This document shows, piece by piece, positions 17,345 to 64,000 of a DNA stretch of 64,000 bases. The DNA is from Candidatus Cloacimonadales bacterium. Its GTDB lineage: Bacteria; Cloacimonadota; Cloacimonadia; Cloacimonadales; JAFGVF01. Under the pieces are notes generated by a model. That model was not told where the DNA came from and did not search any database. It saw only the letters and a list, made by a program, of their open reading frames with translations. The stretch covers positions 1,784,234 through 1,848,233 of the forward strand of contig OY759729.1 of the NCBI GenBank assembly GCA_963662585.1, read 5' to 3'. Each line of letters starts with the position of its first letter. Positions within the stretch are counted from its first letter, which is position 1. A program made the position numbers and the translations under genes.

Positions 17345-18402
17345 AGAAAATAATAACAATAGTTGGAGCAAGACCTCAATTTATAAAATTAGCACCGATA
17401 TCAAGAGAGCTTAGAAAGTATTTCAAGGAAATTATAGTTCATACTGGACAGCATTATGATGATAATATGTCTGATGTGTTTTTCAAGCAACTTAATATTC
17501 CTTATCCTGATATAAATCTAGGTGTTGGTTCTGCTTCTCATGCTATCCAAACAGCCAACATGTTGACCAAATTAGAGGAAATATTTATAAAAGAGAATCC
17601 ATCATTAATAGTAATTTTTGGTGACACAAATTCTACCTTAGCTGCTACCTTAGCTGCTGTTAAAATACATTTGCCCATTGCCCATATTGAAGCAGGCTTA
17701 AGAAATTTTGATCTCTCAATTCCAGAAGAAGTTAATAGACTTGTTGCTGACAGATTATCTACATTTCTTTATGCACCTACAAATCTAGCTGTTAATAACT
17801 TAGCTAAGGAAGGTATAAGAGAAAATGTATTTATGTTAGGTGATGTCATGTATGACTCTCTTTTAAGTGGATTAGAGAAGGCAAAGCAATTTTCTAAAAT
17901 ATTAAATACCTTAAATATTGAGGAAAAAAAATATTGCTTAGCTACAATTCATCGTGCAGAAAATACAGACAATATACATAATCTTAAAGAAGTAATCAAG
18001 GCTATAGGGCTGTTTGAAGAGAAGGTTATTTTTCCAATTCACCCAAGAACCAGAAAAGTAATTGAAGAGAATATAATTGAAATACCCCAAAATGTTATGC
18101 TTATACAACCACTAGGATATTTAGATTTTATTAGTTTAGAGAATAATGCTCGGATGATTGTAACAGACTCAGGCGGAGTACAAAAAGAAGCTTATTGCCT
18201 AAAAATCCCTTGTATTACAATTTTTCCATCGACATCTTGGAATGAAACAGTTGAAGATGGTTGGAATAAATTGGCAGATGCAAAAGTTGATTCAATCATG
18301 GAAAAGTATAATTCTGTTTATAATGATTCAATCTACAATTATCACTTTGGTGATGGAAATTCAGCTGTTAAGATTATCGATAACATTAAAAGTCTTATAT
18401 AG
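17341..18402 (+). CDS. UDP-N-acetylglucosamine 2-epimerase (WecB-type, non-hydrolysing)
   Basis: 353 aa. IVGARPQFIKLAPI, HTGQHYDDNMS, DSGGVQKEA. ATGA overlap with the upstream gene. Confidence 0.8.
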   Translation: MKKIITIVGARPQFIKLAPISRELRKYFKEIIVHTGQHYDDNMSDVFFKQLNIPYPDINLGVGSASHAIQTANMLTKLEEIFIKENPSLIVIFGDTNSTLAATLAAVKIHLPIAHIEAGLRNFDLSIPEEVNRLVADRLSTFLYAPTNLAVNNLAKEGIRENVFMLGDVMYDSLLSGLEKAKQFSKILNTLNIEEKKYCLATIHRAENTDNIHNLKEVIKAIGLFEEKVIFPIHPRTRKVIEENIIEIPQNVMLIQPLGYLDFISLENNARMIVTDSGGVQKEAYCLKIPCITIFPSTSWNETVEDGWNKLADAKVDSIMEKYNSVYNDSIYNYHFGDGNSAVKIIDNIKSLI

Positions 18403-21575: not shown

Positions 21576-22021
21576 GAACTTAAGATTTACCACTAAGTCA
21601 CAAAAGTCACTAAGAAGAAAGAATTTTTTAGCCACGAATGAACACAAATTAACACGAATAATTTAAGACAAGGTGAATAAGAATTTTTACCACAAAGGCA
21701 CAAAAGACACAAATAAAATGAAAAGAAGAATGTTGAATTGTTTAGGTGTTTAAAATTTTCAAAAAAAATAGTTATTGAAATCACCCCCTGTGTCCCCCTT
21801 GAGGCGTCGCACAAGGCTATGGAAGGGGATTTAAGAGATTTATTATGGAAGCAGGGACGCTTCCATTCCATAGGAATCACCCCTTGTGTCCCCCTCATGG
21901 AAGGGGATTTTAAGAGTTTAGGAATTAAGTTCTAGCCACAAATTAACACAAATAAGAAAAAACAATAAGAGTTTTATCAGTCTATTACTTTAAATTAAAG
22001 GATGATATTACAGGTAAAAAT
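21576..22021. repeat. Repeat-filled intergenic block: four left-type CCAC… arms plus an H1-H2-H1 hairpin triad (21779-21910)
   Basis: Arms TTACCACTAAGTCACAAAAGTCAC, TTAGCCACGAATGAACACAAATTAACACGAATAA, TTACCACAAAGGCACAAAAGACACAAATA and CTAGCCACAAATTAACACAAATAAG. Hairpins TGGAAGC-AGGGAC-GCTTCCA and ATCCCC…GGGGAT. Confidence 0.6.
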
Positions 22022-22444
22022 ATGCCAAACACAACAATAGACAAAATCAGAAAAGCCTTTAATGCAACTAAGAAGCCTGAAAAGATTAATGAATCTTTAG
22101 CAAAAGCTAAATCTATATTCGAGGAAAGTCTAAAAGAGCAATTTGTCAGGTGTGAAAAGATAGATTTCAATGATGTGGTTTTGTATGAGTATAAATCTTT
22201 TTCTAGTTCAGGATGTTATCTCTGTAATGAAAGTACTTTTGTTTTGTTGAATGTTAAAGCTCATCCTAATTTTGTGAATTACTGGAAGATTAAAACCGAT
22301 GGCCTGGCAGAAAAGATTGAGAATGCGATTGTGTTTTTTGAGAAAGGGAGTCATGGTGTGTCTGAAGTAGTGTTATCGAAGTATGAGATTGAGAAAAGAA
22401 GGGGCTTGCTGAAGCAAGAATTAAAAGATAAAAATGAAAAGTGA
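22022..22444 (+). CDS. Hypothetical protein (140 aa)
   Basis: ORF only, with no recognisable motif. Embedded between repeat blocks. Confidence 0.4.
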   Translation: MPNTTIDKIRKAFNATKKPEKINESLAKAKSIFEESLKEQFVRCEKIDFNDVVLYEYKSFSSSGCYLCNESTFVLLNVKAHPNFVNYWKIKTDGLAEKIENAIVFFEKGSHGVSEVVLSKYEIEKRRGLLKQELKDKNEK

Positions 22445-22687
22445 AAAGTTGTGGTATTGCCTTGCAATGATGATCTGAAGAAGAAAGAAGTTTTAGCCAC
22501 TAATGAACACAAATTAACACGAATAATTTAAGACAGGGTGTAATAGTGACGGGGAGACATAGAGACAAGGCGATTAAGAGATTTAATTATTTAAGAGTTT
22601 ATAAATTTAAAAATAAGAATAGAACACAGTATACTCAGAGTGGACAGATTAATAAGATAGAGTGACGGGGATTTTAAGAATTTTTAT

Positions 22688-22806
22688 GGAATCACCCCTG
22701 TATCCCCCTCATGGAAGGGGATTTTAAGAGTTTTATTATGGAAGCAGGGACGCTTCCATTCCATAGGAATCACCCACTGTGTCCCCCTCGTGGAAGGGGA
22801 TTTTAA
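22688..22806. repeat. H1-H2-H1 hairpin triad (second copy)
   Basis: ATCACCCCTGTATCCCCCTCATGGAAGGGGAT / TGGAAGCAGGGACGCTTCCATTCCATAGG / ATCACCCACTGTGTCCCCCTCGTGGAAGGGGAT. Nearly the same as 21779-21910. Confidence 0.7.
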
Positions 22807-22912
22807 AACTTTTTTCAACTTTTTTTTCAAAAGTGGACCATTTTCAGAAAAAGTGGGCCCTATAAGTATATGAAGGGTTAATAACCTTAATACTTAAAAA
22901 GGAGAAACCATT

Positions 22913-23281
22913 ATGAGTTTCCAAAAAAAAGAAAATTTAGTAGCAGTTAATGAAGAGTGTCCAGTGTTAGCAAAGGAAAGACAGAAGAAAAAAGAAGTGT
23001 GTGAATATTTAGCATTAGTCTCCAATTTATTATTACTTGTAGATGATTTCACAGAAGAATATCTAGCTGATATGAAACAATTAAGGTTTGAAGTAGAACA
23101 TTATTTATACAAAGGTATTAAAAATTTAGATCCTGATTTTCCTTGGGATGATCCTTTTTGCAAAGTAGGATCTGGAGAAACAAATAACGAAGATGTTCCT
23201 GAAGGGATGTATGAAATACTTAAAGAATATCTTGAAGAAGAAGAAATAATAGCTAATAAGCAATTAGCTTCTCCCTGTTAA
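22913..23281 (+). CDS. Hypothetical acidic protein (122 aa)
   Basis: ORF preceded by RBS AAAGGAG and followed by a strong terminator. No recognisable motif. Confidence 0.45.
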   Translation: MSFQKKENLVAVNEECPVLAKERQKKKEVCEYLALVSNLLLLVDDFTEEYLADMKQLRFEVEHYLYKGIKNLDPDFPWDDPFCKVGSGETNNEDVPEGMYEILKEYLEEEEIIANKQLASPC

Positions 23282-23382: not shown

Positions 23383-23420
23383 AATCTGAAAAGAACAAGA
23401 TCTTTCACACGAATTAACAC

Positions 23421-23888
23421 AAATTAAAGACGAATTTCACAAATTAAGAGAAAGAAAAGAAAAATCCTTAACACAGAGTTGTACAGAGGTTAAGAGGAGT
23501 TTCACAGAGTTTTGTAGGGTGCAAGTCATTATTCGCCATCTTAAATGAAGTTTTAACCACAAATGAACATTAATAATTAAGACAAAGTGATGGAGTGTCG
23601 GAGAGACAAGGAGAATAAGAGTTTTCACCACTTAGACACAAAGGCACTAAGAAGAGAAAGAATATAAAAGTGAAAAATGAAAAGTTAAAGAAGTTTTAGC
23701 CACGAATGAATACAAATTAAAGACGAATTTCACAAATTAAGAGAAAGAAAAGAAAAATCCTTAACACAGAGTTGTACAGAGGTTAAGAGGAGTTTCACAG
23801 AGTTTTGTAGGGTGCAAGTCATTATTCGCCCTCTTAAATGAAGTTTTAACCACAAATAAACACGAATAATTAAGACAAAGACTAAGTG
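23421..23888. repeat. Direct duplication of a ~175-bp segment (copies at ~23421 and ~23714, offset 293 bp)
   Basis: The first ~145 nt differ at 1 position. Each copy contains a left-type arm TCCTTAACACAGAGTTGTACAGAGGTTAAGAGGAGTTTCACAGAGTTT and a CCACAAAT… arm. Confidence 0.7.
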
Positions 23889-24021
23889 AAGGAGTGACGG
23901 AGAGAATTTTTATTACTAATTTGTTTTCATCATTAGTGGAATGTATTTTTTGTGTCTTAGTGTCTTTGTGGTGATAAATATTCTTGGACTCCCCTCTTAT
24001 GGAAAGGGGATTTATATGAAA

Positions 24022-24064: not shown

Positions 24065-24136
24065 ATTGACAAGTTTATTGACTATAGAATAGTTAAGAAG
24101 AGAGGATTTAAGATAGAAGCGGAATATGATAATGAA

Positions 24137-24277
24137 GCACCCCCTGTGTCCCTCTTGAGGTGTCGCACAAGGCTATGCCCTCACAGGCTATGAGGGGAAT
24201 TTTAAGAGATTTATGGAAGCAGAGACGCTTTCATTCCATAGGAAACACCCCCTGTGTCCCCCTCGTAGAGGGGGATA
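24137..24277. repeat. H1-H2-H1 hairpin triad (third copy)
   Basis: CACCCCCTGTGTCCCTCTTGAGG…, TGGAAGCAGAGACGCTTTCATTCCATAGG, ACACCCCCTGTGTCCCCCTCGTAGAGGGGGAT. Lies directly upstream of the sugar transferase gene. Confidence 0.7.
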
Positions 24278-24302
24278 AATAAATTTGAGAGAAGGTAGTG
24301 TG

Positions 24303-25910: not shown

Positions 25911-25913
25911 GAG

Positions 25914-27065
25914 TCCTTAACACAGAGTTACACAGAGGTCACCACAGAGTTTAACGGAGTTTTAAGAGAGTTATTATTAATAAGAATGATAGATTAAAAA
26001 AGTAGCCAAGAATAAAGATGTCATTTGGAACAGAGACTGGATAAGCTTAAAATCAGAGTTGAAGAGAGTAAGAAGAAGATTCTTAATTCCTTTAATTTCT
26101 TGGATGGTGCAGTGTTAATGATGAAATTTAAATTTAGAAAAAGATCTTTACGTTACAGATGTAAAATACTGTGGGAAATCATGTTCTGTTGTATTGTATT
26201 AAACTCTGTGAAACTCCTCTTAAACCTCTGTGTAACTCTGTGTTAAAGGAAAATTATATTAAGTAAAAGGAGGTTGCTGGTATGTATGAAGAATTAACAG
26301 AAAGAATTTTAAACTGTGCTTATAAGGTACATAGTAAGCTTGGTGCTGGTATGTTAGAGTCTGTATATCAAAGATGTTTAAGTTACGAACTAACTAAAAA
26401 TGGTATAAAGAATGAAACAGAAAAAGCAATTCCATTAAAGTATGGAGATATGTTTATTGAAAATGCTTTTAAGATTGATATCTTAGTTGAAAATTGCGTA
26501 ATCTTAGAATTGAAATCTGTTGAAAAGTTTAATGAACTGCATCAATCTCAGATATTGAGTTATATGAAGACAGCTGAGAAAAAAGTAGGCTTGTTGATAA
26601 ATTTTAATGTGGGTAGTTTGAGGAATGGGATTAAAAGATATAGCTTGTAATTCCTTAATGTAGAGTGAAGAGAAGATCCTTAACACAGAGTTACACAGAG
26701 GTCATCACAGAGTTTCGCAGAGTTTAAGAGAGAAAGAAAGAAGATTCTTATTTTTTTTAATTTATTGGATGGAGAAGTGTTAGTGATGAAATATAAATAT
26801 AGAAAAAGATCTTTATGTTAGATTTGTAAAGTACTTTGCGAAATCATGTTTTGTTATATTATATTAATCTCTGTGAAACTCTGTGTTAAGGAAAAATAGT
26901 TTGAAAAGAATATCCTTGATACAAAGTTTGAAGATACTGGTTAATATAGAAAAGTTACCAAAATTTAGAGTTTAATTTATAAAAGTGAAGAAGAGCATAA
27001 TTTATTGTATTATATTAAACTCTGTGAAACTCTGTGGTGACCTCTGTGTAACTCTGTGTTAAGGA
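25914..27065. repeat. Nested inverted-repeat cassette 4 enclosing an intact GxxExxY gene
   Basis: Outer left arm 25914-25962. The reverse complement of 27017-27065 matches it at 47/49. Inner right arm 26201-26250, inner left arm 26677-25 (26677-26725, also 47/49 to the outer right arm), and a truncated right arm near 26866-26892. The ~150-bp cores at ~26085 and ~26745 are diverged copies of each other. Confidence 0.7.
26282..26650 (+). CDS. GxxExxY-family protein (PD-(D/E)XK nuclease-like superfamily)
   Basis: 122 aa. LGAGMLESVYQRCL (GxxExxY), DILVENCVILELKSV and SQILSYMK are typical of the family. RBS AAGGAGG upstream. Confidence 0.8.
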   Translation: MYEELTERILNCAYKVHSKLGAGMLESVYQRCLSYELTKNGIKNETEKAIPLKYGDMFIENAFKIDILVENCVILELKSVEKFNELHQSQILSYMKTAEKKVGLLINFNVGSLRNGIKRYSL

Positions 27066-27094: not shown

Positions 27095-28150
27095 ATGAAG
27101 ATTTTAATAACAGGTACAGCCGGATTTATCGGCTTTCATTTAGCAAACAGGTTGCTCAAAGAGCAAGATGTTGAGATAGTAGGATTAGATGTAATTAATG
27201 ATTATTATGATTTGAGAGTAAAGTATGGTAGATTAGCTGAAGATGGTTTTCCTCTCCAGAACATTCGTTATGGCGAGATTATTCAGAGTGAGAAGCATGC
27301 TAACTACAGATTTATAAAATTAGATTTATGTGATAGAGCTAAACTCTACAAACTTTTTCAAAATGAGGAGTTTGATGTCGTAGTAAATTTGGCTGCACAG
27401 GCTGGAGTCCGCTATAGTATTACCAATCCTGATGCTTATTTAGAGAGTAATATTATTGGTTTCTTTAATATTTTAGAAGCATCGCGTCAGAATAAAATTA
27501 AGCATTTAGTTTATGCTAGTTCTTCTAGTGTTTATGGTTGGAACGACAAGCTTCCTTTCTGTACCACTGATAATGTGGATCATCCTATTTCACTTTATGC
27601 AGCCAGTAAGAAATCTAATGAATTATTAGCTCATTCTTATAGTGCTTTGTATGATATTCCTACAACAGGTCTAAGATTCTTTACAGTCTATGGTCCATGG
27701 GGCAGACCTGATATGGCTCTATTCCTTTTTGCCAAAGCAATTGCTGAAGGAAAGCCGATTGATGTCTTTAATCATGGTAAAATGAAACGCGACTTTACTT
27801 ACATTGATGATATTGTAGAAGGTATAAAACGCGTGATTTATCATCCTGCCCAGCCAATGCCAGGCTGGAGTGGTGAAAATCCTACTCCAGGAGCTTCAAA
27901 AGCACCATATAAGATCTATAACATAGGAAATAACGATACTGTATTGCTAATGGATTTCATCGAAGCTATTGAGGAAGAAATGGGCAAGAAAGCCATTAAG
28001 AATATGTTGCCACTTCAACCAGGGGATGTTCCTGCTTCTCATGCCGATGTTACTGATTTAGTTGAAGATCTAGGTTACAGACCTAATACTCCTATTAGGG
28101 AAGGGGTGAAGAAGTTTATTGAGTGGTACAAGAATTTCTACAGAATTTGA
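27095..28150 (+). CDS. UDP-glucuronate 4-epimerase (CapI/WbnF/LpsL-type NAD-dependent epimerase)
   Basis: 351 aa. ITGTAGFIGFHL, YAASKKSNE (Y-x3-K), FTVYGPWGRPDMA. Confidence 0.8.
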   Translation: MKILITGTAGFIGFHLANRLLKEQDVEIVGLDVINDYYDLRVKYGRLAEDGFPLQNIRYGEIIQSEKHANYRFIKLDLCDRAKLYKLFQNEEFDVVVNLAAQAGVRYSITNPDAYLESNIIGFFNILEASRQNKIKHLVYASSSSVYGWNDKLPFCTTDNVDHPISLYAASKKSNELLAHSYSALYDIPTTGLRFFTVYGPWGRPDMALFLFAKAIAEGKPIDVFNHGKMKRDFTYIDDIVEGIKRVIYHPAQPMPGWSGENPTPGASKAPYKIYNIGNNDTVLLMDFIEAIEEEMGKKAIKNMLPLQPGDVPASHADVTDLVEDLGYRPNTPIREGVKKFIEWYKNFYRI

Positions 28151-28540
28151 CGGAGAGACAAAGAGATGGAGATTTTTTTCGCCTGTGGCTCAAAGACGGG
28201 GAGACGGGGTGATGGAGAGAATGTAGGGGCAAAACATTTTTTGCCCAATGAATGATTAGAGATTCTGAAAAATGGACTTTTTCCAAGTCAGAAGATGGAG
28301 AGACAAAGAGATAGAGAGGGGAATTAAGCCACGAACTAAAGGTCCTTAACCCTATTTATAAAGATATAAAGATAGACAAAGAGAATGGAGCTTTGATTAA
28401 AGGTTTTCATTGAATACAAAGAATTATTAGAATGGAAAACAAGAAGATAATGATTTATGGAAAAGATGGATGTAAGAGTATTTTTCTTTCTCTCTATCAC
28501 TCCCTCTCTCCATCACTTTGTCTTTTTTTCAAGGAAATAT

Positions 28541-28909
28541 ATGAATATATATAAATTAATTAGATGGTTTTTAGTCCTCTATCTCATAACACTGATAACA
28601 GTATCGGTAATTCCCTTAGGGAGTGTGAGTAGAGAAATTACTAATGTTACAGTAATTCATCTGCGAGGAGATTATTTTTTACATTTGCTGGTGTATCTTC
28701 CGGTAGTGTCCCTCTTAATGCTTAGTTTGCAGAAATGGAAGTGGAAAATGCTACTTGTAGCTTTTGGTGTAGCGATAGGTTTGGAATATATCCAAATGTT
28801 GCTTCCTTATAGAAGCTTTAATATTAATGACTTGATTGCTAATGCTTCTGGGGTTCTTGTAGGAGCTTTGATTTATCCTCTAATTACACGGATTTCAAGA
28901 ATTCTGTAA
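28541..28909 (+). CDS. VanZ-like family membrane protein
   Basis: ATG 28541 (MNIYKLIRW…), four hydrophobic helices, NINDLIANASGVLVG near the C-terminus. The 5' extension to 28457 in the ORF track lies in repeat sequence. Confidence 0.5.
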   Translation: MNIYKLIRWFLVLYLITLITVSVIPLGSVSREITNVTVIHLRGDYFLHLLVYLPVVSLLMLSLQKWKWKMLLVAFGVAIGLEYIQMLLPYRSFNINDLIANASGVLVGALIYPLITRISRIL

Positions 28910-28915
28910 AGATTC

Positions 28916-29446
28916 AAAATTATGGACATAACCCTGTAAGGATTTAATCAAATTTATATAATAAGGTCCTTGCACCTTAAATTTTCCAGTTCTCCGCTAG
29001 AGCGTCGAACCACTAATGGTGGGTTGCTTTGTGCTACCAAGAAACAGCTCCTCTGGAGCTAAAACCAATGAATTAACTCAGAATGATGCTAGCAAGAAAC
29101 CGCTCCGCTGACAGGAACCAAAATTATCTCTTTATGATACCAAGATTGAACCAAGCATATCTCTTCGCTTCGGAGAAGCGGTTTCTTGGTAGTCATGAGT
29201 ACCTATCACGAACACCTTCGCTCCGTAGGTGCGAATTTATTTTAATTAAATAGCATATTATATAATATTTATTAACAAATAATATAAATATATTTTGTTT
29301 GTATACTTTTTTACTAGCAAGGAAAAATAATATCCCTGAAAGGGATTAATAGATTAGCCTGGGGTAAGATCCTATAGGGATCGTCACCCCAGGTGCAATA
29401 TCTAAAATTATGGACATAACCCTGTAAGGGTTTAATCAAATTTATA
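28916..29446. repeat. Segment bracketed by 43-bp direct repeats, containing a hairpin-rich GC-richer core and an AT-rich stretch
   Basis: AAAATTATGGACATAACCCTGTAAGG(A/G)TTTAATCAAATTTATA at 28916-28958 and 29404-29446 (42/43). Inside, ACCAAGAAAC(A/C)GCT occurs three times, one of them inverted. Confidence 0.55.
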
Positions 29447-29463
29447 GAAGGATTAATGAGAAA

Positions 29464-32458
29464 TTTTATAAGGTATTTCGCACGCAAGGGTGCATGCAAT
29501 CCGGCAGAAGAGGTCTTATCATGCTGTAAACTATCATCTTTAGTGATTAACTGGGGTTACGGACCTTTAGTCCGTGAATACATCAGGCTGTATTTCAGTC
29601 TGTTTTATTTAATCCCTTTGGGATTGAATGACACAGGGGGTGTTTTCTTCTATGGAGTGGAAGCGTCTCTGCTTCCACATTAGACAAAAATAAGATAACA
29701 TTAGAATTTTATAAGGTTTTTCGCATGCAAGGGTGCATGCAATCCGGCAGAAGAGGTCTTATCACATTTGTTACCTTTTTAGGATATGTCGCCCTGCTAG
29801 GGCTATATGCTGGTTGTTTCCTCTAGGAGTGTCTTGCGAACACTCCCTGTTATATGTTATCCCTCCGGGATGTAAAAGGCTCGACAAGAATACAGCACAT
29901 TAAACCAGGATTAAAGAGGTCAACATTATTCACCATTCTACCAGCTCCCTCTGCAGCTAAGAAGATTTTGAAGGATTAATGAGAAATTTTATAAGGTATT
30001 TCGCACGCAAGGGTGCATGCAATCTGGCAGAAGAGGTCTTATCATGCTGTAAACTATCATCTTTAGTGATTAACTGGGGTTACGGACCTTTAGTCCGTGA
30101 ATACATCAGGCTGTATTTCAGTCTGTTTTATTTAATCCCTTTGGGATTGAATGACACAGGGGGTGTTTACTTCTATGGAGTGGAAGCGTCTCTGCTTCCA
30201 CATTAGTCAAAAATAAAATAACATTAGAATTTTATAAGGTTTTTCGCATGCAAGGGTGCATGCAATCCGGCAGAAGAGGTCTTATCAAATTTGTTACCTT
30301 TTTAGGATATGTCGCCCTGCTAGGGCTATATGCTGGTTGTTTCTTCTAGGAGTGTCTTGCGAACACTCCCTGTTATATGTTATCCCTCCGGGATGTAAGA
30401 GGTCCCGTATCAAGTATTTATTACAGCACATTAAACCAGGATTAAAGAGGTCAACATTATTCACCAATCTACCAGCTGCCTCTGCAGCTAATAAGATTTT
30501 GAAGGATTAATGAAATATTTTTATAAGGTATTTCGCACGCAAGGGTGCATGCAATCCGGCAGAAGAGGTCTTATCACATTTGTTACCTTTTTAGGATATG
30601 TCGCCCTGCTAGGGCTAAATGCTGGATGTTTCTTCTAGGAGTGTCTTGCGAACACTCCCTGTTATATGTTATCCCTCCGGGATGTAAGAGGTCCCGTATC
30701 AAGTATTTATTACAGCACATTAAACCAGGATTAAAGAGGTCAACATTATTCACCAATCTACCAGCTGCCTCTGCAGCTAAGAAGATTTTGAAGGATTAAT
30801 GAGAAATTTTATAAGGTATTTCGCACGCAAGGGTGCATGCAATCCGGCAGAAGAGTTCTTATCATGCTGTAAACTATCATCTTTAGTGATTAACTGGGGT
30901 TACGGACCTTTAGTCCGTGAATACATCAGGCTGTATTTCAGTCTGTTTTATTTAATCCCTTTGGGATTGAATGACACAGGGGGTGTTTTCTTCTATGGAG
31001 TGGAAGCGTCTCTGCTTCCACATTAGACAAAAATAAGATAACATTAGAATTTTATAAGGTTTTTCGCATGCAAGGGTGCATGCAATCCGGCAGAAGAGTT
31101 CTTATCATATTTGTTACCTTTTTAGGATATGTCGCCCTGCTAGGGCTATATGCTGGTTGTTTCTTCTAGGAGTGTCTTGCGAACACTCCCTGGTATATGT
31201 TATCCCTCCGGGATGTAAGAGGTCCCGTATCAAGTATTTATTACAGCACATTAAACCAGGATTAAAGAGGTCAACATTATTCACCATTCTACCAGCTCCC
31301 TCTGCAGCTAAGAAGATTTTGAAGGATTAATGAGAAATTTTATAAGGTATTTCGCACGTAAGGGTGCATGCAATCTGGCAGAAGAGGTCTTATCATGCTG
31401 TAAACTATCATCTTTAGTGATTAACTGGGGTTACGGACCTTTAGTCCGTGAATACATCAGGCTGTATTTCAGTCTGTTTTATTTAATCCCTTTGGGATTG
31501 AATGACACAGGGGGTGTTTACTTCTATGGAGTGGAAGCGTCTCTGCTTCCACATTAGTCAAAAATAAAATAACATTAGAATTTTATAAGGTTTTTCGCAT
31601 GCAAGGGTGCATGCAATCCGGCAGAAGAGGTCTTATCAAATTTGTTACCTTTTTAGGATATGTCGCCCTGCTAGGGCTATATGCTGGTTGTTTCTTCTAG
31701 GAGTGTCTTGCGAACACTCCCTGTTATATGTTATCCCTCCGGGATGTAAGAGGTCCCGTATCAAGTATTTATTACAGCACATTAAACCAGGATTAAAGAG
31801 GTCAACATTATTCACCATTCTACCAGCTCCCTCTGCAGCTAAGAAGATTTTGAAGGATTAATGAGATATTTTATAAGGTATTTCGCACGCAAGGGTGCAT
31901 GCAATCCGGCAGAAGAGGTCTTATGATGCTGTAAACTATCATCTTTAGTGATTAACTGGGGTTACGGACCTTTAGTCCGTGAATACATCAGGCTGTATTT
32001 CAGTCTGTTTTATTTAATCCCTTTGGGATTGAATGACACAGGGTGTGTTTTCTTCTATGGAGTGGAAGCGTCTCTGCTTCCACATTAGACAAAAATAAGA
32101 TAACATTAGAATTTTATAAGGTTTTTCGCATGCAAGGGTGCATGCAATCCGGCAGAAGAGGTCTTATCACATTTGTTACCTTTTTAGGATATGTCGCCCT
32201 GCCAGGGCTATATTCTGGTTGTTTCTTCTAGGAGTGTCTTGTGAACACTCCCTGTTATATGTTATCCCTCCGGGATGTAAGAGGTCCCGTATCAAGTATT
32301 TATTACAGCACATTAAACCAGGATTAAAGAGGTCAACATTATTCACCATTCTACCAGCTCCCTCTGCAGCTAAGAAGATTTTGAAGGATTAATGAAATAT
32401 TTTTATAAGGTATTTCGCACGCAAGGGTGCATGCAATCTGGCAGAAGAGGTCTTATCA
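29464..32458. repeat. Composite tandem array: 12 copies of a 58-bp hairpin repeat (J) alternating with two body types (A 185 bp, B 222-231 bp)
   Basis: J starts at 29464, 29707, 29987, 30230, 30519, 30807, 31050, 31338, 31581, 31869, 32112 and 32401. Periods are 243 (A) and 280-289 (B). Order: A B A' B B A B A' B A B. Confidence 0.9.
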
Positions 32459-32550
32459 TTTACTTAAGTTAATACTAAAACTCTGTGTTAAGGAACTTCT
32501 CTTATTCTTTCTTATTAGTGAAATTAGTGGATAGATTCTTCTTGCTTAAA

Positions 32551-34509
32551 CTAATCATTAATCAAGGAGAATTTAATAATATCCTTTTCAGGGTCTATTC
32601 TGTCAATTATAAGATTAACACTATCTCCAACAAGGAGTTCTTCTTTGCATCTAATATTATACCTTTTTCCAAAAGAGAGTAATTCGCAGGTGTAATTATT
32701 TTGGTTATCACTAACGACTACTGCAGGTAGTGGTTCATAGAGAAGATTCTGTTTTAAGTATTTCAGGAACCAATAATTAAAGGAACTAGAATAAAGTTGA
32801 GAGTAGTTTTTGTTTGTCCATTCGATATCAGAAAGGAAGCTAAGTAACTCTTCTTGGGTGTAGGAAAAGATTTGATTCTTTAAATAACCTGTTATTTGAC
32901 GCTGTGTTAATAAGTCAAAATACCTGCGTAAAGGCGAAGTAATCTGAGAATAGTAATCAACACCTAATCCGTAATGTTTTCCTGGAATAGAAGAGAAATT
33001 AGAAGGACGGATAAGTCTGATGAGTTTATCATTCATTATTGGGTCATAATAATCTGGCTGAAGAAAGTGCTTATAATCCTCATTGGGCATTTCTTGAATT
33101 CTGTAGATATAAGGGATATTATTCGTAGAAGCAAATTCAGCAAGACTTGTATTCATTTGGATCATTAATTCACTGATAATTTTACGGGAGAATGATCTTT
33201 GGTTAGTCATTTTCAAAGTTACTTCATCATTGATTACCCTCATTTCAATTTCAGGTCTGTTAATCTCGATTGCTCCAGCTTCAAATCTTCTATTTCTAAG
33301 ATTATCAGTTAATTTTCTGAGAATATTAAAATCACTATTGGCTTCGTTTTTGGATTTCTTCAGTATTTTATCAAATTCATCGTAGGATATTTTGTGAGTT
33401 ACTGCTAGTTTTGATAAGATAATTTTTTTATCTAATAACTCAAATTCTGGTGAGAAAGTGAATAGAGTGCTGAGAGTTGGGCGTATTTGTCCTTTAACTA
33501 AGCTGAGTTTATCATGACTAAGTTCAGGAGGAAGCATTGGGATTTCTCCAGTTTCAAGATAGACAGTAGAGACTCTTTGATTAGCTACTTTGTCTAAGAG
33601 TGAATCCTTAGGGATATAGCTTCCTAAATCTGTTATATGAACACCAAGAAGATAGTTACCTTCAATTATGTCGAAAGATATAGCATCATCAATTTCTTTA
33701 GTATCCTCACTGTCTATAGTATAGCTAGTGAGGTGAGATAGGTCTTCTCTTCCTGTGAGGTCAATTTTTAGATGATTAGCTTCATCAATTTCTGCTAGGG
33801 AAAATTCAGTAGTAAGACCGTAGATTATAGCAAATTTATCTGAATCCTGAGCTACTTTATCATTAATCTTTAAAATATTATAAACAAAGAAGCGACTATC
33901 TTGTCCGTTAGCATATTTATCAATAACGGAAGTAAGTACTTGATTTTCAGGCTTCTTTAACCAAGAAAAAAGACAGTCGAATATTTTAGAATCGACTGCT
34001 TGGTCATTTCTCATTGCTAAACCAATATTGTCAGAGTAGAAGCTATGAATCTCAAGTTTCTCTTTCTCTTTTTTCTCTTGAACTAGTATTTCCTCAATCT
34101 GTTCTAAAGAGCGGGGAGTAACTTGTAGTCCTTTTCTTTTGAAGTGATTTTTTTCTTCTCTAATTGCCCGAAAAAGAGCAGATTGGATTAAGGTACTAGG
34201 ACTATCTATTAAAAAAGAGGCTAGTTCCTCTATAGAATACTCTCTACTATCTTCTTGGGTAAGTTCCCATAGGTCCATAACTGAGATATTATCTTTTTCT
34301 GATTCTATTAAATGGTCCAAATCAGAGATAGCACTTGAAAGGTTATCTTGAGATAGAACTTGATGTTGGAAAAGTATCCGACTACTAGTTAATTTTAGTT
34401 TTTGCTTAGAAGCTTTCTCAACAACAATACGATTATCTGATTCTTCTGTTTTCTTACCAAAATGAATTTCATTACCTTCGAAGTATTCTACTATCTCTAA
34501 TTTTTCCAT
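32551..34509 (-). CDS. RNB-domain 3'-5' exoribonuclease (RNase II/R family)
   Basis: 652 aa. DSEDTKEIDDAIS and HYGLGVDYYSQITSPLRRYFDL catalytic motifs. Confidence 0.75.
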   Translation of the reverse strand: MEKLEIVEYFEGNEIHFGKKTEESDNRIVVEKASKQKLKLTSSRILFQHQVLSQDNLSSAISDLDHLIESEKDNISVMDLWELTQEDSREYSIEELASFLIDSPSTLIQSALFRAIREEKNHFKRKGLQVTPRSLEQIEEILVQEKKEKEKLEIHSFYSDNIGLAMRNDQAVDSKIFDCLFSWLKKPENQVLTSVIDKYANGQDSRFFVYNILKINDKVAQDSDKFAIIYGLTTEFSLAEIDEANHLKIDLTGREDLSHLTSYTIDSEDTKEIDDAISFDIIEGNYLLGVHITDLGSYIPKDSLLDKVANQRVSTVYLETGEIPMLPPELSHDKLSLVKGQIRPTLSTLFTFSPEFELLDKKIILSKLAVTHKISYDEFDKILKKSKNEANSDFNILRKLTDNLRNRRFEAGAIEINRPEIEMRVINDEVTLKMTNQRSFSRKIISELMIQMNTSLAEFASTNNIPYIYRIQEMPNEDYKHFLQPDYYDPIMNDKLIRLIRPSNFSSIPGKHYGLGVDYYSQITSPLRRYFDLLTQRQITGYLKNQIFSYTQEELLSFLSDIEWTNKNYSQLYSSSFNYWFLKYLKQNLLYEPLPAVVVSDNQNNYTCELLSFGKRYNIRCKEELLVGDSVNLIIDRIDPEKDIIKFSLIND

Positions 34510-53927: not shown

Positions 53928-54320
53928 GAAAAATCTACCAATAATTTCACGAATTAAGAAAATATCCTGAAGGGATTAAATAGATTAGCCCAGGGTCTCA
54001 TTTTTTGAAGAAAAATTGACCCTGGGTATGGTACACCAATATTTATTTAACCCTGTCTTGTGAAGGCGAAGCATTAGCGTAGACTCAAAGGGTTTAATAG
54101 AGAAAATAATAATTACTAAAAAATCGGTCAAATTATTTAGGACTGAACATTCACACGAATTAACGCGAATGTAGGGGCCAATTGCCATACGCCTTCTTGA
54201 AAAGTTCCCTAACACAAAGTTTTTAAGAAAAGTTTTGAGAATGTGATAAGATCTCTTCAGCCGGATTGCATGCACCCTTGCATGCGAAAAACCTTATAAA
54301 AATCTAATGTTATCTTATTA

Positions 54321-55973
54321 CTAATCTTTCCGACACCTAAGTTATTGCAAATAAACTACTAATTTGCACATCATAGCGACTCATATGTCTTTTTATCAGT
54401 TAATTATGCAATTCTGCCATTATACCGAATATCTACCTCTGTGATTTTATCTATAATTTCTTCATTTTCAAAGAATTTTCTTATCATGATATCAACATCC
54501 TTTCTTAACTCAGTTAAATTTGTGTATCCATAAGCTATTGAATAATCGATGAAGTCTTTTACTTTTTGAGTAAAAATCGTATTAATAAATATGATTAATG
54601 ATGCATCTTCAAGCTCTTCATAAAATTCAATTAATAACTGTTCCATAGAAGGATATGGTTTTTGCTGTTTTTTGTAACATAGTATGTTATAAAAAACATA
54701 CCTAATAGTCAAATCAGCTATCATAGCAGAGTATTTTGAAGAATGGCTCTGATTATATCCAAAATATTGTTTAATCTCTTTAAATACACATTCTATTGAC
54801 CATCTTCTCATATAAATTTTTAAAACTTCTATTTCTGAAAGTTGTAAATCAGTTGCTAAAATAGCCTTCCATCTTTTAACATTAGGGTACTTAAAAAAGC
54901 ATATTTTAATCTTTTCTATTACTTTTCTTTCATTTATTTTTCTTGAACTTGAAGTATCTAATAATTCAACAATAACAGATTTATATTTTATTCCGGATTT
55001 CCTATCATAAAACCATTTACCAGCTATTTTGTTTAGGGTTTTCAAATCATAATATTGACCTTTAAACTTATATTTCTGGGAACCATTTTTTAACATAGAC
55101 ACTAGTGTTATTCCAAGTGGTACAAGTCTTTTAAATACAAAGTTATAACTTGTGTTGTTATTGAACCAAGAATCCCATAATACATATTTAAAAGGTATTT
55201 TTCTCTGAATAGTGCGTTTTATCATTTTAATTACAATTTGAGTCTTCTTTTCTTTTGAGAAACGATTTCTTTGCTCAGTATGAGTGCCTTTGTGGTATCT
55301 GGGTCTTTTTGACTTTTTGACTTTTTTCTTTCCAATTTTTAATTCAAAATCTAATACAATAGCTGATAACCCATTACTCCACACTTCAGTTATGTTTTGA
55401 AACCCTTTGAAGTATTTTGATAAACAGTGATCATGAAACCAACTGATATATTCTGTCTTTTTCCCTGTTTTTACTTTCGATGTATCATCAAAAATTATAC
55501 AATTATCATTTTCACAGGAAGTATCACTTAGCTTAATAAACCTTAAAGCAACTTTATATAATAGATTTCTCCATTTATAATTAGAGTTGTTTAGCATATC
55601 ATTAATGGGTGTTTTAAATTTTGATATATTATTGAATTTTAGACCAAAATATAAGGATTTTTTATTCTCAAGAATCATGAACATAAAAAGAAGCATCAAT
55701 TCAATGATGGTATGACCTTTTTGTTTTACTATACCAACTTGCTTCAAAATACTTCCAAATTTAAATATTTCAAATAACTCTATTATTAATCCTGAATTCA
55801 AGCTTGACACTTTTACCTGTTTGTATTTTTTTAGCATATATACCTCGTTTTTTATAGTTTCGTTTATTTCCGTAAACAACTAAACTATAATCATATACGA
55901 GGTATTTTTGTCAATATCTATTTTTATCTATTTTATTGTTACACAACAACTTAATTCATGTCGGAAAGATTAG
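54321..55973 (-). mobile_element. IS4-family insertion sequence (1653 bp)
   Basis: 15-bp perfect terminal inverted repeats CTAATCTTTCCGACA. 6-bp direct duplication TTATTA (54315-54320 / 55974-55979). An uninterrupted paralogous site occurs at ~56451-56470. Confidence 0.8.
54404..55879 (-). CDS. IS4-family DDE transposase
   Basis: 491 aa. D (IIFDDTS), D (VLWDSWF) and an exact Y-x2-R-x3-E-x6-K signature (YMRRWSIECVFKEIK). Confidence 0.8.
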   Translation of the reverse strand: MFTEINETIKNEVYMLKKYKQVKVSSLNSGLIIELFEIFKFGSILKQVGIVKQKGHTIIELMLLFMFMILENKKSLYFGLKFNNISKFKTPINDMLNNSNYKWRNLLYKVALRFIKLSDTSCENDNCIIFDDTSKVKTGKKTEYISWFHDHCLSKYFKGFQNITEVWSNGLSAIVLDFELKIGKKKVKKSKRPRYHKGTHTEQRNRFSKEKKTQIVIKMIKRTIQRKIPFKYVLWDSWFNNNTSYNFVFKRLVPLGITLVSMLKNGSQKYKFKGQYYDLKTLNKIAGKWFYDRKSGIKYKSVIVELLDTSSSRKINERKVIEKIKICFFKYPNVKRWKAILATDLQLSEIEVLKIYMRRWSIECVFKEIKQYFGYNQSHSSKYSAMIADLTIRYVFYNILCYKKQQKPYPSMEQLLIEFYEELEDASLIIFINTIFTQKVKDFIDYSIAYGYTNLTELRKDVDIMIRKFFENEEIIDKITEVDIRYNGRIA

Positions 55974-57110
55974 TTATTATTGTCTTATGTGGAAGCAGAG
56001 ACGCTTCCACTCCATAGAAGAAAACACCCCCTGTGTCCCCCTCACGGAGGGGGATTTAAGATTCACGGACTAAAGGTCCGTAACCGTAACCCCAGTTCTT
56101 CAATCCCAAAGGGATTAAATAGATTAGCCCAGGGTCTCATTTTTTGAAGAAAAATTGACCCTGGGTATGGTACACCAATATTTGTGTAACCCTGTCTTGT
56201 GAAGGCGAAGCATTAGCGTAGACTCAAAGGGTTTAATAGAGAAAATAATAATTACTAAAAAATCGGTCAAATTATTTAGGACTGAACATTCACACGAATT
56301 AACGCGAATGTAGGGGCCTATTGCCATACGCCTTCTTGAAAAGTTCCCTAACACAAAGTTTTTAAGAAAAGTTTTGAGAATGTGATAAGATCTCTTCTGC
56401 CGGATTGCATGCACCCTTGCATGCGAAAAACCTTATAAAAATCTAATGTTATCTTATTATTGTCTTATGTGGAAGCAGAGACGCTTCCACTCCATAGAAG
56501 AAAACACCCCCTGTGTCCCCCTCACGGAGGGGGATTTAAGATTCACGGACTAAAGGTCCGTAACCCCAGTTAATCACTAAAGATGATAGTTTACAGCATG
56601 ATAATCCCTCTTCTGCCGGATTGCATGCACCCTTGCATGCGAAAAACCTTATAAAAATCTAATGTTATCTTATTATTGTCTTATGTGGAAGCAGAGAGGC
56701 TTCCACTCCATAGAAGAAAACACCCCCTGTGTCCCCCTCACGGAGGGGGATTTGAGATTCACGGACTAAAGGTCCGTAACCCCAGTTCTTCAATCCCAAA
56801 GGGATTAAATAGATTAGCCCTGGGTCTCATTTTTTGAAGAAAAATTGACCCTGGGTATGGTACACCAATATTCGTGTAACCCTGTAAGGTTTTATCACAC
56901 TCTTGAAATTCTCTCCATTTCCCTTGCTCTGTGACTGTCATCTCAAATATTATTTGAATTTTATTCGTAATATCATTAATGGAGCATTAAGAGACTAAGA
57001 GAAAAGGAAAGAAAAAGCAGAATTGTAGAAAAGGATAAAAGCTATAATATCAACAATTTACGAATCTAAAATCTAAAGTAAAAGATAATAATATAAAAAA
57101 GATATTGACA

Positions 57111-63686: not shown

Positions 63687-63690
63687 TTTA

Positions 63691-63725: not shown

Positions 63726-63784
63726 AGAAAGATGAATCTATCCACTAATTTCACGAAATTTTAAAAATATCACCAAGGGATTAA

Positions 63785-64000
63785 ATGGATTCGCCCGAAT
63801 GTAGGGGCGTATTGCCATACGCCCTTTTAATCAAAAAAGAGGTAATTATCACTAAAAACTGGAAATTATTTAAGATATTCTTTAAGATTGGAGCCTTCAC
63901 TATTGGAGGTGGCTATGCAATGCTACATTTAATTGAGTATGAATTGGTGGAAAAAGAGAAATTATTAGATTATGATACTTTTCATGATGGTCTTGCTCTT
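63785..64000 (+). CDS. 5' part of a chromate-transporter (CHR) family protein, runs off the right edge
   Basis: Open frame to the window end encoding …FFKIGAFTIGGGYAMLHLIEYELVEKEKLL, the CHR-family FGGGxAM motif. The start is uncertain (ATG 63785 inside a repeat module, or TTG 63812). Confidence 0.45.
   Translation, partial: MDSPECRGVLPYALLIKKEVIITKNWKLFKIFFKIGAFTIGGGYAMLHLIEYELVEKEKLLDYDTFHDGLAL

Follow-up and report, generated by a model that had tools for sequence, protein, structure and literature searches.

Tandem array of hairpin repeats in a Cloacimonadota-like genome, a probable strain-specific amplification within a family of non-coding mosaic intergenic repeats

The window (the whole 64,000-nucleotide stretch of DNA that was analysed) comes from a Cloacimonadota-like genome, which is the host of a family of mosaic intergenic repeats. 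A 58-bp repeat (J) of this family alternates with longer bodies in a tandem array of 12 J copies. We conclude that the array is probably a recent, strain-specific tandem amplification within a lineage-specific, non-coding repeat family. Modules of the family are dispersed and recombined at several loci, and both the copy number and the content of the array vary within the species.

Results

Organization of the array

The array lies at the VanZ/RNase II locus, where J alternates with body A (185 bp) or body B (222-231 bp). A preliminary description of this DNA had reported 12 J copies and the body order A B A' B B A B A' B A B. We found all 12 copies on the + strand at the reported starts with 0-1 mismatch to the reported consensus, and both the body lengths and their order were as described. 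In the whole window the J consensus had 15 matches, compared with 0 in 100 shuffles. The features of the array are as follows.

29464..32458, + strand: tandem array of 12 J, 5 A bodies and 6 B bodies
29464..29521, + strand: J type Ja (A12/C20; C.A mismatch in the + strand stem); further Ja copies, also +, start at 29987, 30519, 30807, 31338, 31869 and 32401
29707..29764, + strand: J type Jb (T12/T20; perfect 7-bp stem GCATGCA-AGGG-TGCATGC); further Jb copies, also +, start at 30230, 31050, 31581 and 32112
29522..29706, + strand: body A, 185 bp; other A copies, also +, at 30045-30229 (A'), 30865-31049, 31396-31580 (A') and 31927-32111
30288..30518, + strand: body B, 222-231 bp; other B copies, also +, at 29765-29986 (divergent middle), 30577-30806, 31108-31337, 31639-31868 and 32170-32400

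The higher-order unit is J-A-J-B (523-532 bp, n = 5); the array also includes a single additional J-B (289 bp) and ends in a J. Array copies are 97-100% identical to each other, J copies are spaced 243-289 bp apart, and TRF reported a 289-bp period at 30228-30864. The periodicities within the array are nested and include one J+B duplication. Nesting is also seen in the phasing of ~25 variant sites (A/A', B1-B6). The A' units are copies 2 and 4 of the five A bodies, that is, every second one; they share private substitutions as previously reported, although these number four (three in the body and one in J) rather than three. B2 and B3 have two private substitutions in common, and the loop variants described at 32196 and 32240 are present. 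The array had been noted to be GC-richer than its flanks; its GC content is 40.4%, compared with 32.1% in the window and 16-32% in other intergenic DNA. Its neighbours are, as described, a VanZ gene (+) and an RNB-domain RNase II gene (-). Genes adjoining the repeats differ from locus to locus, and the strand of the array relative to those genes varies among loci.

The J repeat

J begins with TTTTATAAGG and terminates in GGTCTTATCA. Its flanks are conserved and single-stranded, with TTTTATAAGGT located 5' of the hairpin and CAATCC plus GRCAGAAGAGNTCTTATCA located 3' of it, and its stem is 7-9 bp long. The 7-bp stem originally ascribed to J is perfect in 5 of the 12 array copies (Jb), whereas the remaining seven (Ja) contain a C.A mismatch; on the + strand the Ja copies fold no better than shuffles. 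Ja always follows a B body or the start of the array and Jb always follows an A body. Because the variant found in the 5' part of J depends on which body lies before it, the fifth copy (J5) is the expected product of a J+B duplication. The earlier reading of the J5 anomaly as exchange inside J had overlooked the linkage of the J 5' half to the upstream body.

A variant, J', matches J only in a 19-22-nt tail. The diverged J of a more distant relative (L012) keeps its flanks and has 3 of the 7 stem pairs changed on both sides, on which account the J hairpin appears to be under structural selection, this covariation coming from one diverged sequence. As far as sequence comparison can tell, J is an oriented junction element in which hairpin pairing, rather than the hairpin sequence, seems to be conserved. 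Judged by eye, neither a DnaA box nor an IHF site fits the J tail.

Hairpins and folding of the bodies

The hairpins that had been named in A and B are present in the sequence. Body A links as modules the ACGGAC hairpin, a terminator-like CAGGCTG..CAGTCTG hairpin with TTTTATTT after it, an AATCCC-TTT-GGGATT hairpin, CACAGGGGGTG and a GTGGAAGC..GCTTCCAC hairpin. Hairpin density was ~3 to 9 times that of shuffles: one 531-bp unit contained 8 perfect hairpins with a stem of at least 5 (2.6 +/- 1.5 in shuffles) and 6 with a stem of at least 6 (0.7 +/- 0.8 in shuffles). On either strand the same unit gave better folds than its shuffles did (z = -3.8 on + and -5.5 on -). Stems vary less than loops and spacers: of 48 stem columns in eight B copies, 1 varied, as opposed to 19 of 117 non-stem columns (p = 0.009), with 4 of 17 loop columns variable. 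The strong conservation of hairpins and the high GC content in an AT-rich genome would be compatible with a functional RNA as well.

All terminator-like hairpins in the array are on the + strand (11, compared with 3.4 expected for the whole 4.6-kb region scanned), which hints at transcription units. In each A body a + strand hairpin that includes a G.U pair precedes TTTTATTT, B has a weaker counterpart, and a promoter-like site at 29381-29408 is directed into the array. The A-like bodies of a second locus (see below) are without the terminator module. We agree with the preliminary description that the strand evidence is equivocal, since G.U-only pairs occur both on the minus strand (J) and on the plus strand (the A terminator-like hairpin and the ACGGAC stem). 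The Bacteroidetes-type promoter TAnnTTTG was rejected, as it is not enriched upstream of the real genes of the window; several of these genes have TTGAC-type -35 boxes and Shine-Dalgarno sites. CsrA-type GGA loops were also rejected, the GGA motifs being in stems.

Flanking modules, a second mosaic and dispersed sub-modules

The account previously given of the array was accurate, but a second locus, dispersed sub-modules and an insertion sequence (IS) had not been seen. The additional features are listed below.

29332..29433, - strand: K module, ~100 nt, inverted relative to the array
29037..29195, no strand assigned: left-flank structured segment
32459..32520, + strand: right flank, the head of body C, containing AAAACTCTGTGTTAAGGAACTT
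53965..56893, - strand: second mosaic (locus 2)
54321..55973, - strand: IS4-family insertion sequence, 1653 bp, within an A-like body
21770..21925, - strand: dispersed A sub-modules, with more at 22650-22815 and 24125-24285
63770..63830, + strand: fragment of K together with a perfect GTAG-tagged hairpin, GTAGGGGCGTAT-TGCC-ATACGCCC

A 46-nt end of the K module is duplicated at 28916-28961, immediately after the VanZ stop codon. The left-flank segment contains convergent terminator-like hairpins at 29045-29061 (-) and 29165-29181 (+) together with repeated CAAGAAAC boxes, and belongs to a ~490-540-bp unit that is duplicated in tandem in a sister genome (L009). On the right, AAAACTCTGTGTTAAGGAACTT is the terminus of a CACAGAG-type inverted-repeat family, and the same sequence follows J at locus 2.

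Locus 2 has three J copies on the minus strand (56599-56656, 56383-56440 and 54244-54301) in the order K - A-like - Jb - A-like - Jb - C - K - A-like (IS-split) - Jb - C - partial K. The IS4-family element that splits the third A-like body has 15-bp inverted repeats (CTAATCTTTCCGACA), and its target site, TAATAA (6 bp), is duplicated. Both loci have K, C and the CACAGAG-type terminus. A sub-modules were found at five sites in the window, at least three of them intergenic sites besides the array and locus 2; the dispersed ones at 21770..21925 comprise a TCCCCYT..AGGGGGA hairpin, CACAGGGGTG and a ATGGAAGC..GCTTCCAT hairpin. At the equivalent of 63770..63830, the sister genome has a longer K+C version.

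Two small hypothetical genes with A sub-modules on both sides were considered as the cognate enzyme and rejected. That at 22022-22444 encodes a syntenic, lineage-restricted protein of a polysaccharide cluster, and one relative is without the upstream module; that at 22913-23281 has only six weak relatives.

Variation among related genomes

Same-species relatives were reached via cluster members of the RNase II protein and via an identical ArsC protein. Flanks of the array locus in two genomes of the species are 98-99% identical to the window (L009 and L010, 98.2-98.8% over 4-12 kb of the RNase II-side flank). At the VanZ/RNase II locus both genomes contain only Ja-B*-J'-B'-Ja, without A; J thus occurs twice, its variant once and a B-like body twice, and related arrays are present elsewhere in these genomes. 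Thus the array locus of three same-species haplotypes ranges from 2-3 J copies up to 12, and since the same-species genomes carry few J and no A at this position, we consider the 12-copy array to be a strain-specific expansion. In L009 the ~500-bp left-flank unit is duplicated instead.

The locus 2 orthologue of the sister genome shows whole-module differences and is without the IS, and that genome holds a third array, (J'-C-K) x2.5. The J' hairpin occurs at both orthologous loci of the sister genome and is missing from the window, which points to homogenisation between loci.

Database searches

We obtained no Rfam match in the window at gathering thresholds, and with the limit relaxed to E <= 10 matches within 28800-32700 were at chance level only (E >= 2). 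The statement of the preliminary description that the window is free of cas, integrase and RAYT-type genes was confirmed in the 51 window ORFs of at least 120 aa, which also had no GIY-YIG (ssnA-type) domain. Recombinase, RAYT, IS110, GIY-YIG and integrase genes were found neither in the window nor in the examined loci of relatives, and no enzyme to mobilise or recognise the modules was found in ~64 kb of the source genome plus ~50 kb of same-species sequence.

An 18-mer of J gave 7 single matches of at most 31 nt in species-representative genomes; these lie in unrelated taxa and are due to chance. JGI metagenomes gave no match for a J 22-mer or for a gapped pattern of the A module. Viral contigs matched neither this A-module pattern nor any of four patterns taken from J, the tail, K or the flanks only, and phage and plasmid records did not match the 531-bp unit. 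Exact-word repeat searches overlook diverged copies such as the J of L012.

Comparison with known repeat systems

Like CRISPR, the array consists of regularly interspaced, partly palindromic direct repeats in one orientation at an intergenic site, and like integron attC sites and CALINs it has directly oriented hairpin sites between cassette-like units with no integrase nearby. Both assignments had been rejected before, rightly in our view. CRISPR repeats are ~23-50 bp and are separated by unique spacers of similar length (~26-72 bp), whereas the repeat here is 58 bp and the intervening sequences, 185 and 222-231 bp, are of only two kinds, each present 5-6 times; moreover, the same J occurs at other loci with other bodies. 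The absence of cas genes in 64 kb is not decisive by itself, because orphan arrays exist. The attC site has R''-L''...L'-R' arms with a GTTRRRY core at the cassette boundary, and cassettes usually carry a promoterless gene; by contrast, J is without the RYYYAAC/GTTRRRY pair of R'' and R' cores, its stem is 7-9 bp and the cassettes are without genes.

The closest analogues are the Neisseria NIMEs and the enterobacterial BIMEs, although the array belongs to neither. The earlier statement that no described element has this architecture was consequently too strong, NIMEs (PMC1797815) and BIME-2 arrays (PMC2817692) being close. NIMEs are intergenic arrays in which short hairpin repeats alternate with longer bodies of a few kinds; at syntenic positions they vary in repeat number and length between strains, and they contain IS insertions and yield new body variants by recombination (PMC1797815). 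The longer form of the NIME repeat dRS3, termed NTS, forms a hairpin that is oriented and whose non-palindromic flanks are conserved (PMC11893778). The mosaics of the window resemble NIMEs in combining a hairpin repeat with a few longer families, in their strain variability and in the IS insertion at locus 2, and J resembles NTS; this is a resemblance of architecture and not homology. The dRS3 pattern ATTCCCN8GGGAAT had 0 window matches with up to 1 mismatch, and the pattern of the Ssn-related motif (SRM), HGTCWYN(0-2)YYVSBRHN(0-5)WNVSBRGN(0-2)RNCYNB, which is associated with a small GIY-YIG gene (ssnA), had none. In addition, J is a 58-bp element and not a simple 20-bp palindrome, the 3-4 body types seen are multi-hairpin chains of 185-260 bp rather than 50-150 bp, the phylum is another one, and a partner nuclease or phage recombinase was not found in the sequence searched.

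BIMEs are extragenic mosaics of GC-rich imperfect palindromes and linkers, often at gene 3' ends, that amplify in tandem, show strong length polymorphism between strains and preserve their palindromes by complementary changes (PMC2817692). The hairpin mosaic, the tandem amplification and the strain polymorphism are features in common. REPs are imperfect palindromes of 20-40 bp with a 5' GT(A/G)G tag; GTAG-tagged hairpins exist in the mosaics described here, namely GTAGGGGC..GCCC hairpins at positions 28223 and 63801 and imperfect versions in C bodies. J itself, however, is without a GT(A/G)G tag, its unit is 243-289 bp as compared with ~40-100 bp, and no RAYT gene was seen in the loci examined. 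REPs alternate in orientation within BIMEs and have defined linkers, whereas J keeps one orientation per locus (12 copies on + in the array, 3 on - at locus 2). The LDR repeats of E. coli, which are ~500-bp intergenic direct repeats in which stable RNA-type hairpins accompany a short ORF of hydrophobic product (PMC2887945), also resemble the array in these respects, but the array ORF is without purifying selection, is not in all copies or loci and belongs to no recognisable toxin family.

Discussion

Of the candidate explanations raised earlier (a multi-hairpin structured RNA, a protein-binding or decoy scaffold, and a BIME-like recombination hotspot), the last is favoured, because modules are dispersed and recombined at several loci, same-species copy number and composition vary, and the ORFs are neutral; the positive support for a structured RNA is hairpin conservation. 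The family is apparently built of short GC-rich hairpin modules in a limited order, K, optionally A, J or J', and then B or C. Expansion to 12 J is most simply explained by unequal recombination between J copies: the 58-bp copies, 243-289 bp apart, would provide portable homology for RecA-type unequal crossing-over or slippage, and might also serve ectopic conversion between loci. An ancestral J-B-J'-B-J locus may have gained an A-Jb segment, after which the 531-bp J-A-J-B unit would have multiplied. Hairpins could be retained through recognition by a trans-acting protein, as in RAYT-REP and Ssn-NTS, or for a role in transcripts as intergenic terminators or 3'-end barriers. The modules may have dispersed by transposition; no single-module insertion with clean boundaries was seen.

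Inflation of a short repeat by the assembler is highly improbable. Repeats of this type do assemble poorly, but the copies are non-identical and their variant sites are phased, independent assemblies of related strains hold the same modules at the same locus, and the source contig is 3.30 Mb, a contiguity that normally spans a 3-kb array. Also very improbable, and largely refuted, is the explanation by small-protein genes in tandem, such as those of a type I toxin-antitoxin array resembling the LDR repeats. It would draw on an ORF spanning J and the head of B (29-33 aa, hydrophobic, MQGCMQSGRRGLITFVTFLGYVALLGLYAGCFF), with its start codon and an AAGGG box in the J hairpin, which is present in all 6 J+B units and in one B-like unit of L009 and has a hairpin after its stop codon; moreover, type I toxin loci are commonly tandem duplicates (PMC2887945). 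Yet non-synonymous to synonymous changes in this ORF number 7:1, with both L>P and Y>N falling within its hydrophobic part, the second B-like unit of L009 (B') is without the start codon and has compensating +1/-1 indels, the ORF is not retained after J at locus 2, and its Shine-Dalgarno spacing is 3 nt compared with ~5-9 nt in real genes of the window. The 75-aa and 84-aa ORFs had already been judged probably not to be genes, which the variation supports: the A and B ORFs gave ratios of 6:1 and 10:2 (the neutral non-synonymous fraction is 0.76), with a stop codon in one copy. A coding role for the 75-, 84-, 57-, 96- and 33-aa ORFs was rejected, as we found no homologues or family matches and the variation is neutral. 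The array ORFs evolve neutrally, without purifying selection.

Could the array specify RNA, either as tandem small-RNA genes or as one long multi-hairpin RNA acting as a protein sponge or scaffold, with J as a 5' stem-loop or processing site and the body hairpins as the functional structure? Hairpin density far above chance, the conservation of stems relative to loops, the covarying J stem of L012, a GC content of 40% compared with 16-32% in intergenic DNA of this genome, the G.U-containing hairpin of every A body and the promoter-like site are all consistent with this. We nevertheless regard it as unlikely given the chance-level Rfam matches, the G.U-only pairs on both strands, the inconstant strand of the array relative to adjoining genes and the absence of a consistent promoter ahead of the units. 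In addition, bodies are present or absent within the species, an IS lies inside one of them without evident cost, and the A-like bodies of locus 2 are without the terminator module. Another explanation, to which we give only a slender chance, is that J is the target of a dedicated recombinase or hairpin-specific nuclease encoded elsewhere in the genome, the bodies being non-coding cassettes (integron/attC-, dRS3-phage- or RAYT/Ssn-like). Conserved, oriented J flanks around a covarying hairpin are reminiscent of REP, NTS and attC (PMC2817692; PMC11893778), whole bodies are exchanged between loci and strains, J' keeps just the J tail as if this were a functional core, and GTAG-tagged hairpins occur in the same mosaics. 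Against this, no such gene was found in the window or the examined loci of relatives, J is without GTTRRRY core sites and a GTAG or CGTC tag, SRM and dRS3 had no match in the window, and homologous recombination alone explains both the linkage of the J 5' variants and the nested periodicities.

Mosaic hairpin repeats such as REP/BIME and NIME are known mainly from Proteobacteria, where their effects extend to genome plasticity, mRNA 3' ends and recombination with incoming DNA; in each case the dedicated protein, RAYT for REP and Ssn for NTS, came to light only decades later. The locus described here shows that an unrelated repeat family follows the same logic in a phylum that is uncultivated and AT-rich, and the three same-species haplotypes document rapid expansion of the array from 2-3 to 12 J copies. 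Arrays of this type can serve in strain typing through their copy number; they probably disrupt the short-read assembly of these genomes and could be mistaken for CRISPR arrays or genes. It is improbable, though conceivable, that J is the recognition site of a putative hairpin-specific Cloacimonadota protein that assembles and spreads the cassettes, or that the cassettes are tandem structured RNAs. If so, the family would have a machinery and a function of its own as a repeat system and would not be passive recombination debris.

A mosaic hairpin array between the VanZ and RNase II genes

A search of the whole window with the consensus of J, a 58-bp hairpin repeat, gave 15 matches, and none in 100 shuffles. 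As the preliminary description had claimed, twelve copies lie on the + strand at 29464-32458 (locus 1), each with 0-1 mismatch to that consensus. Two types of body separate them, five copies of A (185 bp) and six of B (222-231 bp), in the order A B A' B B A B A' B A B, where A' is a variant of A. Copies of one kind are 97-100% identical, with the exception of B1, the first B copy, whose middle is divergent. The bodies had been called hairpin-dense, and the 531-bp J-A-J-B unit does contain 8 perfect hairpins with a stem of at least 5 bp, compared with 2.6 ± 1.5 in dinucleotide shuffles (6 versus 0.7 ± 0.8 for stems of at least 6 bp). Folding of this unit also beats shuffles on both strands (z −3.8 and −5.5). 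The array is GC-richer (40.4%) than the window (32.1%) and other intergenic DNA (16-32%), and its flanking genes encode a VanZ-family protein (+) and an RNB-domain RNase II (−). No cas, integrase, RAYT or GIY-YIG gene was found among the 51 window ORFs of at least 120 aa. The feature is genuine, and its preliminary description proved accurate as regards the two body types and their order, the base composition, the neighbors and the lack of cas, integrase and RAYT genes.

The J copies occur in two forms. Jb (T12/T20) has a perfect 7-bp stem and follows an A body without exception, whereas Ja (A12/C20), which accounts for 7 of the 12 array copies, occurs only after a B body or at the array start; thus, the 5′ half of J is linked to the upstream body. 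The 7-bp stem proposed for all copies holds for Jb, but in Ja it contains a C·A mismatch on the + strand. Folding of Ja was no better than that of shuffles on the + strand and good on the − strand, where the mismatch becomes G·U. The fifth copy, J5, had been considered anomalous. Instead, it is the expected product of duplication of a J+B unit. TRF detected a 289-bp period in this region, and B2 and B3 have two private substitutions in common. The suggested higher-order repeat was borne out: A' occupies every second A position, resulting in a second-order period of ~1.06 kb.

Dispersed modules and a second J mosaic

Modules of the array recur elsewhere in the window, including a second J mosaic (locus 2), so that the array at locus 1 represents one case of a modular repeat family.

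Features of the repeat family outside locus 1
~53965-56893, − strand: second J mosaic, between a LytTR response-regulator gene and an ArsR gene
54244-54301, 56383-56440 and 56599-56656, − strand: J copies matching the consensus, all Jb
54321-55973, − strand: IS4-family element of 1653 bp with 15-bp inverted repeats and a 6-bp target duplication (TAATAA)
21770-21925, 22650-22815 and 24125-24285: A sub-module block found alone

The order at locus 2 is K - A-like - Jb - A-like - Jb - C - K - A-like - Jb - C - partial K, where K and C are further modules and the IS4-family element splits one A-like body. The ACGGAC and GTGGAAGC hairpin modules occur in both A and A-like bodies, with a TCCCCCT..AGGGGGA hairpin in A-like bodies in place of the terminator-like hairpin and AATCCC-TTT-GGGATT of A. 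K lies ahead of the units, on the same strand at locus 2 and inverted at locus 1. Both arrays terminate in J followed by an identical ~60 nt holding AAAACTYTGTGTTARGGAACTT; this is the terminus of the CACAGAG-type inverted repeats, a family frequent in the window. The edge of locus 2 (53900-53945) bears a TCTCTGTCTCTTTGTCTC-type simple repeat, which is found again at array edges in a sister genome (L011 ~7470-7500 and 17300-17350).

CACAGAG/CACGAAT-type inverted repeats resembling MITE termini were seen at 25912-26250, 26668-26895, 27000-27065 and 23387-23905, with a 293-bp tandem duplication at 23.4-23.9 kb, and the right end of the array bears one such terminus. These repeats flank a PDDEXK_3 (GxxExxY) gene at 26282-26650; a small nuclease-family gene bracketed by repeats is reminiscent of the repeat-flanked RAYT and Ssn genes. 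Two small hypothetical genes (22022-22444 and 22913-23281) lie between A sub-module clusters at the end of a polysaccharide-biosynthesis cluster. For the 140-aa product of the first, just 9 homologues were found, each from a close relative; it has no Pfam match and an AlphaFold mean pLDDT of 73. A search of 1.8 billion representative proteins gave 6 weak relatives for the 122-aa product of the second.

Comparison with the same species and with relatives

The nearest named relative of the RNase II protein, from a Candidatus Cloacimonetes bacterium, is 50% identical. Members of the 90% cluster that contains the window's RNase II protein led us to L009, a locus in a 3.12-Mb genome, and to L010, a 7.4-kb contig, whose flanks are 98.8% (over 12 kb) and 98.2% (over 3.9 kb) identical to the window; both are the same species. 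An identical ArsC protein led to L011, the sister-genome orthologue of locus 2.

At the VanZ/RNase II locus, L009 and L010 contain only Ja - B* - J' - B' - Ja followed by the right flank of the window, with no A body in either. B* is a truncated B plus other modules, and B' carries a ~90-nt insert within the AGCTGC..GCAGCT hairpin. J' has in common with J only the last 19-22 nt (GRCAGAAGAGNTCTTATCA), preceded by a different hairpin, GGCGGAGA..TCTCCACCGTCC. A left-flank unit of ~490-540 bp is tandemly duplicated in L009 but not in L010 or the window. At locus 2, L011 and the window are alike through K - A-like - Jb into the start of the body that follows, after which L011 has different modules and J'; the IS is absent from this site in the sister genome. 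A third array lies just past the window end.

L011 16400-17280, + strand: (J'-C-K) x2.5 with a period of 318-351 bp, between chromate-transporter and EPSP synthase genes

The J' hairpin is absent throughout the whole window, so the strains differ in the junction variant at orthologous loci. The window and the sister genome also differ by whole modules at the LepA 3′ end. These comparisons indicate that the 12-copy array arose after divergence of these strains, at ~1% flank divergence. We infer that the A-Jb segment at locus 1 was imported from another J-bearing locus and that sequence exchange occurs between arrays at different loci.

In L008, a relative with 79% RNase II identity, there is no array after RNase II and no module in 22 kb; a methyltransferase gene begins 14 nt after RNase II. 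Gene order from RNase II to TusA/DsrE is in common and stops exactly at the array (window 32459, L008 11960-12000), placing the mosaic at a synteny breakpoint.

Several further elements were observed in these regions. Downstream of VanZ, inside the left-flank unit that is duplicated in L009, lies a structured segment (29000-29240; L009 12675-13758) with two convergent terminator-like hairpins, each adjoining GTTTCTTGGTAG, and three CAAGAAAC boxes; 29000-29240 had no Rfam match. In the window this segment is bracketed by a 46-nt K piece (28916-28961 = 29404-29450). A 23S_rRNA_IVP (four-helix-bundle) gene is present at 101-502, and the sister genome has another between VanZ and an epimerase gene (L009 14352-14753), where the window has only ~300 bp (28150-28457), part of which is the GTAG-tagged hairpin GTAGGGGCAAAACATTTTTTGCCC (28223). 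After the LepA stop codon there is a heptamer microsatellite, (GAGAATT)n (63690-63725).

Constraint on the hairpins and coding potential

The B comparison covered eight copies, six of them from the window and two from L009, and 165 homologous columns. Variation was found in 1 of 48 stem columns versus 19 of 117 non-stem columns (Fisher p = 0.009), a test that is indicative only because the copies are related; 4 of 17 loop columns varied. Stronger evidence for selection on the hairpin came from a more distant relative, L012, which is ~78% identical at the nucleotide level in a shared gene and has one J-like copy at 4518-4584. This copy keeps the 5′ TAAGATAACAT..TTTTATAAGGT and the 3′ CAATCC..AGAAGAGGTC, and its stem is GCGAACA/TGTTCTC rather than GCATGCA/TGCATGC, such that both members of 3 of the 7 pairs differ and one further pair is disrupted. 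This pattern was reached in only 1 of 500 shuffles and in no slid register. From this one diverged sequence, we conclude that J is an oriented element whose flanks are conserved and whose hairpin is structurally constrained. Run over 145 kb, a covariance model of these sequences picked up no more than the J copies already known, that of L012 (70 bits) and weak J' matches.

The array is not protein-coding. Three ORFs were considered: 75 aa (Ja+A), 84 aa (J+B) and a hydrophobic 29-33 aa (J+B head) whose ATG is inside the J stem. Non-synonymous to synonymous variants among copies were 6:1, 10:2 and 7:1, respectively, against a neutral non-synonymous fraction of ~0.76, and the 75-aa ORF contains TCA>TGA in one copy. 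None of the ORFs matched Pfam or NCBIfam, and the 75-aa ORF had no words in common with any of 5.8 billion proteins, in keeping with the earlier view that the 75-aa and 84-aa ORFs are probably not genes. A type I toxin is an unlikely reading of the hydrophobic ORF: its variants include L>P and Y>N, its Shine-Dalgarno-like box is 3 nt from the start codon, compared with ~5-9 nt for real genes in the window, and B' of L009 lacks the start codon and has compensating +1/−1 indels.

Relation to known systems

CRISPR membership is ruled out by repeat and spacer properties and attC membership by core sites, as the preliminary description had concluded. The closest architecture is that of the neisserial intergenic mosaic element (NIME), in which families of 50-150-bp RS elements lie between 20-bp dRS3 hairpin repeats and cluster into arrays whose repeat number varies by strain and which contain IS insertions (PMC1797815). 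About half of the dRS3 copies sit in a longer oriented hairpin, NTS, that is cut by a small GIY-YIG ssDNA nuclease (PMC11893778). In BIMEs, REP palindromes and linkers form mosaics, which are tandemly amplified in BIME-2; they are highly strain-polymorphic, show complementary palindrome changes and are associated with RAYT transposases (PMC2817692). The J family shares the logic and behavior of NIME and BIME but fails the defining sequence features of each. The dRS3 pattern and the SRM motif of Ssn/NTS are absent from the window, J copies have neither the alternating orientation nor the GTAG tag of BIME/REP, and no cognate enzyme of the RAYT or Ssn kind was seen for the J family in the window or fetched loci. 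Some hairpins of these mosaics do carry a GTAG tag, at 28223, at 63801 and in the C bodies.

Possible roles and expansion of the array

Strand evidence had been described as equivocal, and it is. Mismatches on the J strand are C·A, that is, G·U on the opposite strand, both for the stem-extending pair in all window copies (T-A in L012) and for the Ja variant, and on that opposite strand the J helix reaches 9 bp. Conversely, the terminator-like hairpin and the ACGGAC stem extension of A have G·U on the J strand only. The array may act as DNA, with the hairpin recognized by a putative protein, or as RNA, as a putative terminator or 3′-end protection between genes; the bodies may also have no role. 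Terminator-like hairpins number 11 within the array, all on the + strand, with none at locus 2. Orientation relative to neighboring genes varies between the loci examined, and an Rfam search gave no match for the array.

J provides 58 bp of near-identity at 243-289 bp intervals. Unequal homologous exchange or slippage between J copies would explain why the array has 531-bp and ~1.06-kb periods and one additional J+B unit, why J 5′ variants are tied to the body upstream and why strains differ in copy number. Ectopic conversion via J or its tail would be the source of A at locus 1 and would have replaced J' with J. These data can be explained without a site-specific enzyme, although one may take part. 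We conclude that this is a lineage-specific intergenic mosaic hairpin repeat array that is strongly expanded in one strain.
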